NCBI RefSeq assembly: GCF_003334305.1
Contig: NZ_QOWS01000024.1
DNA length: 64,000 nt
Source of the DNA: Escherichia coli
GTDB taxonomy: Bacteria > Pseudomonadota > Gammaproteobacteria > Enterobacterales > Enterobacteriaceae
Reading direction: 5' to 3' (one strand)
In this document: piece after piece, positions 34,064 through 34,160 of the stretch
Layout: each line of letters starts with the position of its first letter
Position numbering within the stretch: position 1 is the first letter of the stretch
Program-made: the position numbers and the translations under genes
Notes under the pieces: generated by a model
Databases searched by the model: none
Seen by the model: only the letters and a program-made list of their open reading frames with translations
What the model was told of the DNA's origin: nothing

Positions 34064-34160
34064 GCCTGATGCGCTACGCTTATCAGGCCTACATTTTCTC
34101 CGCAATATATTGAATTTGCGCGGTTTGTAGGCCGGATAAGGCGTTCACGCCGCATCCGGC
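34064..34160. repeat. BIME/REP element
   Basis: GCCTGATGCGCTACGCTTATCAGGCCTAC ... GTAGGCCGGATAAGGCGTTCACGCCGCATCCGGCA; near-identical to the copy at 50768..50866. Confidence 0.75.

Follow-up and report, generated by a model that had tools for sequence, protein, structure and literature searches.

The Escherichia coli DNA considered here, a window of 64 kb that is colinear with K-12 MG1655 at 812-835 kb and matches strain E2865 and others at 100%, carries two related composite repeats, referred to below as copies A and B. Copy A occupies the spacer between the convergent genes uvrB and yvcK (= ybhK), and copy B that between the convergent genes rhlE and ybiA. The uvrB stop codon ends at 34026, copy A starts at about 34039 and its first REP begins at 34064; the rhlE stop codon ends at 50715 and is followed by a GC-rich hairpin (ATGCCGGGC-TAT-GCCCGGCAT; 50722-50742, plus strand) that abuts the left end of copy B, which starts at about 50742 and has its first REP from 50768. 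The distance from stop codon to REP start is 37 nt for the uvrB copy and 52 nt for the rhlE copy. On the far side, the minus-strand genes yvcK/ybhK and ybiA end at 34218 and 50947, each just beyond its repeat. A preliminary description of this DNA had placed both elements directly after a stop codon, which is right as to their downstream position and approximate as to "directly", the unit at uvrB starting 34039 against a stop codon that ends at 34026. The K-12 RefSeq annotation has no repeat features in the uvrB/yvcK and rhlE/ybiA spacers; the GenBank K-12 record presumably carries RIP annotation for both.

Both repeats are composite BIMEs, consisting of two inverted REPs around a conserved spacer, as had been described. 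In copy A a Y-type REP (GCCTGATGCGCTACGCTTATCAGGCCTAC; 34064-34092, plus strand), whose CTAC tail points toward the linker, is followed by an L linker of 34 nt (34093-34126) containing a small dyad, CGCAA...TTGCG, and by a Z-type REP (34127-34160, minus strand, where it reads GCCGGATGCGGCGTGAACGCCTTATCCGGCCTAC) with its tail likewise toward the linker. Copy B has the same Y-type REP (50768-50796, plus strand), an L linker of 35 nt (50797-50831) and a Z-type REP (50832-50865, minus strand) with one loop difference from that of copy A, so that the minus-strand Z REP of the two copies can be written GCCGGATGCGGCGT(G/A)AACGCCTTATCCGGCCTAC, a single loop base being variable. In both, the REPs stand tail to tail, the plus strand reading GCCTGATG...CAGGCCTAC and the minus strand GCCGGATG...CCGGCCTAC. 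The REP-linker-REP cores, 97 nt in A (34064-34160) and 98 nt in B (50768-50865), align with 89.8% identity (9 substitutions and 1 indel), which bears out the earlier statement that near-identical composite elements lie at 34064-34160 and 50768-50866. The Y REPs are identical at 29/29 positions and the Z REPs at 33/34, the remaining differences being confined to the non-core parts of the linker. The 16-mer AATATATTGAATTTGC within the linker occurs at exactly two sites in the 64-kb window (34104-34119 and 50808-50823), and a third site was not found there even when 3 mismatches were allowed.

The wider family was sampled by a scan of one genome per bacterial species for CAGGCCTAC-N(25-45)-GTAGGCCGGAT, a pattern in which the REP tails are fixed and the spacer is free, and this search for the BIME subtype gave at least 120 loci. 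The loci listed were mostly from E. albertii, two Pseudocitrobacter genomes and two divergent Escherichia lineages labelled E. coli, the rest being some from Citrobacter, Kosakonia and Pluralibacter and a few chance matches elsewhere; the sample thus represents the family in other genomes rather than the complete complement of any single E. coli genome. Among the matches listed, 83 of the 101 Y/Z pairs with a spacer of 33-36 nt contain a TGCAATATATTGAATTTGCA linker, which makes the spacer a character of the family; the linkers of copies A and B both contain a sequence of this kind. The 83 members have the consensus order TGAGACTGATGACAAACGCAAAATT, Y REP, AnGGTTTCTGCAATATATTGAATTTGCAnGATTTT, Z REP and ATGAACAAAGCGCACTTTGTCAGCAATCTGA, a total of ~155 bp, and thus extend beyond the REPs on both sides. 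The similarity of A to B does the same: it exceeds 34064-34160 and 50768-50866 by ~25 nt on the left side and ~32 nt on the right, with 81.9% identity over 157 nt.

The left outer arm lies at 34039-34063 in copy A (plus strand; consensus TGAGACTGATGACAAACGCAAAATT, conserved in most of the 83 members among the matches listed) and at 50742-50767 in copy B (plus strand), where the minimum-free-energy fold has it paired with the right arm. The right outer arm, also given on the plus strand, lies at 34161-34192 in copy A (consensus ATGAACAAAGCGCACTTTGTCAGCAATCTGA, placed by the family consensus and the comparison with strain CFT073 described below) and at 50866-50896 in copy B, by the family consensus. 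The whole unit is therefore ~154 bp in copy A (34039-34192, ends +/- 4 nt), on the evidence of the family consensus and of a CFT073 allele without exactly this segment, and ~155 bp in copy B (50742-50896, ends +/- 2 nt), on that of the family consensus and of an isolate, AF60, whose homology stops at the left edge. The extent of ~97 bp originally reported holds for the REP-linker-REP core and not for the whole unit with its outer arms. Adjoining the right end of copy A is a terminator-like hairpin common to uvrB and yvcK (34194-34210); the empty CFT073 allele has it in perfect form, the window in a degenerate one. No further copies of the outer-arm motif were found in the 64-kb window beyond copy B.

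The outer arms form imperfect inverted repeats (TGAGACTGATGAC against the reverse complement TCAGATTGCTGAC), and across the family members among the matches listed ~70% of their positions are paired, compared with 99% of cells in the Y REP and 97-98% in the Z REP. From its sequence each unit is a nested palindrome, made up of the outer arms, the REPs and the small dyad within the linker. As RNA, both regions were predicted to fold considerably more stably than shuffled sequence, with z-scores of -4.2 for the A region and -5.1 for the B region, and every REP folded into a hairpin, the Y and Z REPs of copy A among them; RNAalifold preferred pairing between the Y and Z REPs, without covariation. 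When the four helices were examined for covariation among the listed family matches, the REP stems were nearly invariant, and double changes in the linker and outer stems were only slightly in excess, to a degree that the kinship of the copies could account for.

This architecture is that of BIME-1, a name due to Gilson, Bachellier and Hofnung for the element also called RIP (Oppenheim and Rudd) and RIB (Boccard and Prentki). Published BIME-1 elements are defined as a Y REP, an L linker with an IHF site and an inverted Z REP arranged tail to tail (PMC2817692), are given a size of 140 bp and are present or absent among isolates (PMC1187871). Copies A and B have the same Y and Z REPs tail to tail around the conserved L linker and, like BIME-1, are extragenic, lie at the 3' ends of transcription units and occur as one unit per locus; the published 140 bp agrees with the consensus of ~155 bp and with a 154-bp indel in CFT073, and no substantive difference between BIME-1 and the two copies was found. 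We consider it about 90% probable that copies A and B are ordinary, old BIME-1 (RIP/RIB) copies that are alike by family descent and have undergone no recent exchange between the two loci. The identity of BIME-1, its IHF site, its 3'-end position and its presence/absence polymorphism are all already known and were described in the 1990s, so that the present analysis has little significance beyond correct annotation, the boundaries being moved from 97 bp to ~154 bp. The Z REPs would be assigned to subtype Z1 by their association with the L linker only, and the Rfam naRNA4 model likewise finds a match to its Z2 half in the Z hairpin.

The likeness of the two copies had been read in another way, namely as the product of recent gene conversion between the loci or of recent transposition of the BIME from one locus to the other. 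An identity of 89.8% and an exact 16-mer common to the two spacers speak for such an exchange, and REP-associated transposase is able to cleave and recombine BIMEs in vitro (PMC3333891). The common spacer is, however, the family-wide L motif, and the core identity of A and B is unremarkable for the family. The mean pairwise core identity of the 83 members among the matches listed is 85.2% (sd 5.1), with the reservation that exact REP anchors of 9 and 11 nt favour well-preserved copies and so inflate identities slightly, and A and B lie within 1 sd of that mean, 18.6% of the family pairs among these matches being at least as similar. Among the 82 relatives of each copy in the matches listed, B takes only 6th place in closeness to A, and A 23rd place in closeness to B, nearer relatives of both being found in other species; across all 157 nt, A and B have just the 81.9% identity given above. 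Strong conservation of the REPs and the linker core throughout the family is the reason why the copies are alike, and the likeness of two members of so constrained a family cannot be taken as a sign that their loci recently exchanged DNA.

The histories of the two loci bear on the same question. Orthologues were placed by tblastn with the UvrB, YbhK, RhlE and YbiA proteins of the window. Among the matches listed, the closest E. albertii relative of copy A, together with the copy in strain E69, lies between uvrB and ybhK, and the closest relatives of copy B, from E. albertii and strain SCPM-O-B-8794, lie between rhlE and ybiA. Both loci are thus occupied in E. albertii and in two other Escherichia lineages, which dates both insertions to before the split of E. 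coli and E. albertii. Over 157 nt, identity between E. coli and E. albertii is 90.4% for A with A and 93.7% for B with B, as against the lower figure for A with B within E. coli. The copies cluster by locus and not by genome, and several positions at which A and B differ show the same locus-specific states in the orthologues at either locus. Divergent E. coli alleles (from O55:H7 CB9615 for A and 2014C-3338 for B) likewise resemble the E. albertii orthologue at the same locus and not the other copy. Recent conversion or transposition would predict the reverse of this clustering by locus, and the implication of recent exchange drawn from a shared spacer and few differences is not supported; that reading is already largely refuted, and we regard it as extremely improbable. 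The sequences instead indicate that copies A and B have evolved independently since before the split of E. coli and E. albertii.

Further features of these orthologues were recorded. In O55:H7 CB9615, copy A differs at ~14 sites, mostly in the left half (window 34039-34120), a divergence of ~9% compared with ~4% in the flanks, and the variant states resemble the E. albertii orthologue; judged from these states, it is probably the allele of copy A found in the window and in K-12 that is derived. The possibility that the filled uvrB haplotype is shared trans-specifically with E. albertii was considered and rejected, the flanks being 82-86% identical to E. albertii and 96-97% to CFT073.

Within E. 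coli, both spacers vary. BLAST found the uvrB copy, with a spacer query of 471 nt, in 3676 of 5426 complete genomes, and the rhlE copy, with a query for its own spacer, in 4301 of 5426, the element being absent or replaced in 32% and 21% of the genomes, respectively. Three alleles of the uvrB-yvcK spacer (window 34027-34217) were distinguished, carrying BIME-1, nothing (the CFT073 type) or a BoxC-type repeat. In CFT073 the spacer is 37 bp only and contains a perfect bidirectional terminator hairpin, GAAGCCGGAATATTCTTCCGGCTTC; by comparison with the filled allele it lacks exactly the 154-bp unit, on either side of which the filled allele has GAAG (34036-34039 and 34190-34193 at the copy A junctions). 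About 450 genomes, for example MLI106K3 (L123, 478-596), have instead, across the uvrB/yvcK hairpin from the BIME-1 site, a 119-bp repeat of the type of BoxC, which is known from E. coli. The idea that the BIME moves as a unit is supported by these alleles, the whole 154-bp uvrB copy being present or absent among E. coli genomes. At the rhlE locus, strain 95-3322 carries IS1397, an IS3-family element, in the Z REP loop of the repeat, at about window position 50848. IS1397 is known for its specificity for REP loops as targets. In some genomes, isolate AF60 among them, a paaA2-parE toxin-antitoxin pair has taken the place of ybiA and BIME-1 and lies between rhlE and dinG (corresponding to window 50744-51450), and homology to the window ends exactly at the left edge of copy B. 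Since the uvrB copy is missing from about one-third of E. coli genomes, it is dispensable, and the same can be said of copy B; any benefit to the host is small. Absence from a fifth to a third of genomes also argues against an important role in the expression of uvrB or rhlE.

The linkers of both copies carry a predicted IHF site, which the preliminary description had missed. On the minus strand each contains ATTCAATATATTG, a match at 12 of 13 positions to the IHF consensus WATCAANNNNTTR, at 34103-34115 in copy A and 50807-50819 in copy B. Near-matches of this quality are common in the window, at ~1 per kb, so that a single 12/13 match proves little. The IHF core (TTGAAT / GCAA, plus strand) is, in addition, the best-conserved part of the linker among the listed family matches, and an IHF site in the spacer is the best-documented property that is specific to BIME-1.

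A crude ORF heuristic allowed the gene context of 58 family copies among the matches listed to be classified; the spacer is convergent for 31 of them, tandem for 27 and divergent for 0, with no bias in orientation relative to the upstream gene (13 versus 14, again among the listed matches). Such a distribution fits elements that are tolerated, or useful, only at 3' ends and that act symmetrically, and it would suit a role at the DNA level combined with REP hairpins on either transcript. By analogy with known systems, the most likely mode of action would be that IHF binds and bends the linker between two REP palindromes that are able to bind gyrase and DNA polymerase I, both of which have been shown to bind REPs (PMC3333891, PMC2817692). 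Linker and REPs would in that way mark the meeting point of two converging transcription units with a site of architectural or topological function. At the RNA level, the REP stem-loops in the 3' UTR of uvrB or rhlE could hinder 3'-to-5' exonucleases or attenuate read-through. Stabilisation of mRNA 3' ends is a documented general property of REPs (PMC3333891), and the 3'-stabiliser role originally suggested for both copies is plausible by analogy. An additional effect is associated with REPs close to stop codons: Liang, Rudd and Deutscher reportedly found in 2015 that a REP within ~15 nt of the stop codon affects translation. With REPs 37 and 52 nt past the stops, this effect is unlikely here.

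A rival view sees in both copies the remnants of a selfish mobile repeat, neutral and without host function at these loci, and attributes their conservation to occasional conversion toward the family consensus and not to selection. Absence or replacement in 32% (uvrB) and 21% (rhlE) of E. coli genomes accords with neutrality, as do the use of the rhlE copy as an IS1397 target in 95-3322, its replacement together with ybiA by a toxin-antitoxin pair in AF60, and the uvrB copy of E. albertii, in which the Z REP is partly degraded. The elements are nevertheless better conserved between E. coli and E. albertii (90.4% and 93.7%) than the adjacent coding DNA (81.6-89.6%), for which the figures are 86.4% and 81.6% around A and 89.3% and 89.6% around B. 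This comparison points to constraint, or to occasional correction toward the family consensus. The persistence of locus-specific differences, however, indicates that conversion is not frequent, the IHF core is better conserved than the rest of the linker, and the family, among the matches listed, is strictly kept out of divergent (promoter) spacers. We therefore think neutrality unlikely, while allowing it about one chance in four of being correct in substance, and retain the reading of copies A and B as old BIME-1 elements whose family probably, by analogy with related repeats, spread as a non-autonomous unit mobilised by a REP-associated tyrosine transposase.

Both linkers are also recognised by an Rfam model of a small RNA. 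RF02751, ES036 (CssrF), matches copy A at 34085-34126 (minus strand, 43.4 bits) and copy B at 50789-50831 (minus strand, 43.3 bits), both above the gathering score of 37.6, and each copy might on this basis be taken to encode the ES036 small RNA on the minus strand as its functional product. At the K-12 type locus, 740211-740253, a 43-nt RNA was indeed detected by RNA-seq; its discoverers found no transcription start for it and suggested that it is processed out of a longer RNA (PMC4676190). The sequence at this type locus is in turn the L linker, together with GTAGGCC, of another BIME-1, situated in the phr-dtpD spacer of K-12 (L126, 1990-2032) and matched to that linker after allowing for a coordinate shift between genome versions; the Rfam ES036 family therefore models a repeat and not a gene. 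In the same study no ES036-like transcript was called at uvrB or rhlE, the neighbouring entries being ES041 at 812 kb and ES042 at 837 kb (PMC4676190). No promoter-like sites were found in the copy A and copy B regions, and the family copies among the matches listed have no orientation bias relative to genes. The two copies share the sequence and the small hairpin that ES036 has in common with the L linker, but give no sign of an independent gene, and a functional small RNA here is very improbable. As copies of BIME-1, A and B exemplify what ES036 matches elsewhere probably are, namely copies of the repeat, and such matches should not be read as sRNA genes.

The phr-dtpD locus differs in its history from the uvrB locus. 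In the allele without BIME-1 a solo, degenerate Y-type REP remains, and in the K-12 allele (L126, 1955-2062) Z REP and L linker, 108 bp in all, look as if added beside the Y REP; the K-12 copy has a long Y REP and no outer arms. The 4-bp junction repeat of copy A could not be generalised to this locus, the "empty" allele keeping a solo REP and the K-12 copy being without outer arms.

The termini of the unit recall a second repeat family. BoxC-type repeats share the motif at their end, ...TCAGCAATCTCAG, with the right outer arm of BIME-1, both in MLI106K3 and in the adk-hemH spacer of ATCC 8739; they occupy a median of 14 places per E. coli genome and, like BIME-1, abut terminator hairpins. BoxC itself was not found in the 64-kb window. 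At the uvrB/yvcK hairpin, BIME-1 lies on one side and BoxC on the other in different strains. From these shared ends a terminal module common to the BoxC and BIME-1 families may be supposed. A stronger proposal, that the outer arms of BIME-1 are MITE-like terminal inverted repeats whose terminus, ...TCAGCAATCTGAG, is common with BoxC and that a common mobilisation machinery targets terminator hairpins, is quite improbable in our estimation; if true, it would imply a machinery acting on the outer termini that is distinct from, or additional to, the RAYT acting on REPs.

Comparison with other REP-based systems leads back to BIME-1. BIME-2 or naRNA-type arrays, in which Y and Z2 REPs alternate with short S linkers in tandem, are built from the same REPs, but copies A and B are single units with a long L linker and an IHF consensus site. 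The naRNA4 model matches both copies only in part, over the Z REP and below its gathering score; the Rfam model (naRNA4, CssrE) is matched over its full length at another place in the window, 56066-56136, with a long Y REP inside the match. With REPINs and MITEs the copies share an inverted REP doublet able to pair, a non-coding and multi-copy nature, behaviour as a unit and terminal inverted arms; unlike REPINs, they have a long conserved linker with a predicted protein-binding site and extra outer arms, the window does not obviously contain a RAYT gene, and the only candidate for a MITE-style direct repeat is the 4-bp GAAG, at the one locus of copy A.

Several observations concern BIME-1 and REPs outside the two spacers. 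In E. albertii, four tandem BIME-1-like units of the form Y-L-Z with outer arms are spaced at 147-148 bp (L007, 6926-7531), so that BIME-1 is not always a single copy per locus. A perfect enterobacterial BIME-1 occupies a 262-bp contig in the assembly of the Firmicute Desulfosporosinus sp. OT, most likely as assembly contamination. Other REPs in the window, all on the minus strand, are the long Y REP within 56063-56136, a solo Z REP at 24427-24460 with the very sequence of the copy B Z REP, and at 5209-5243 a Y REP that is degenerate; the 29-nt Y REP of BIME-1 is a short variant of the 36-nt Y REP at 56063. The window also contains a Molybdenum cofactor riboswitch (RF01055, 103.6 bits) at 35391-35535 on the plus strand, upstream of moaA, as expected for this region of K-12.
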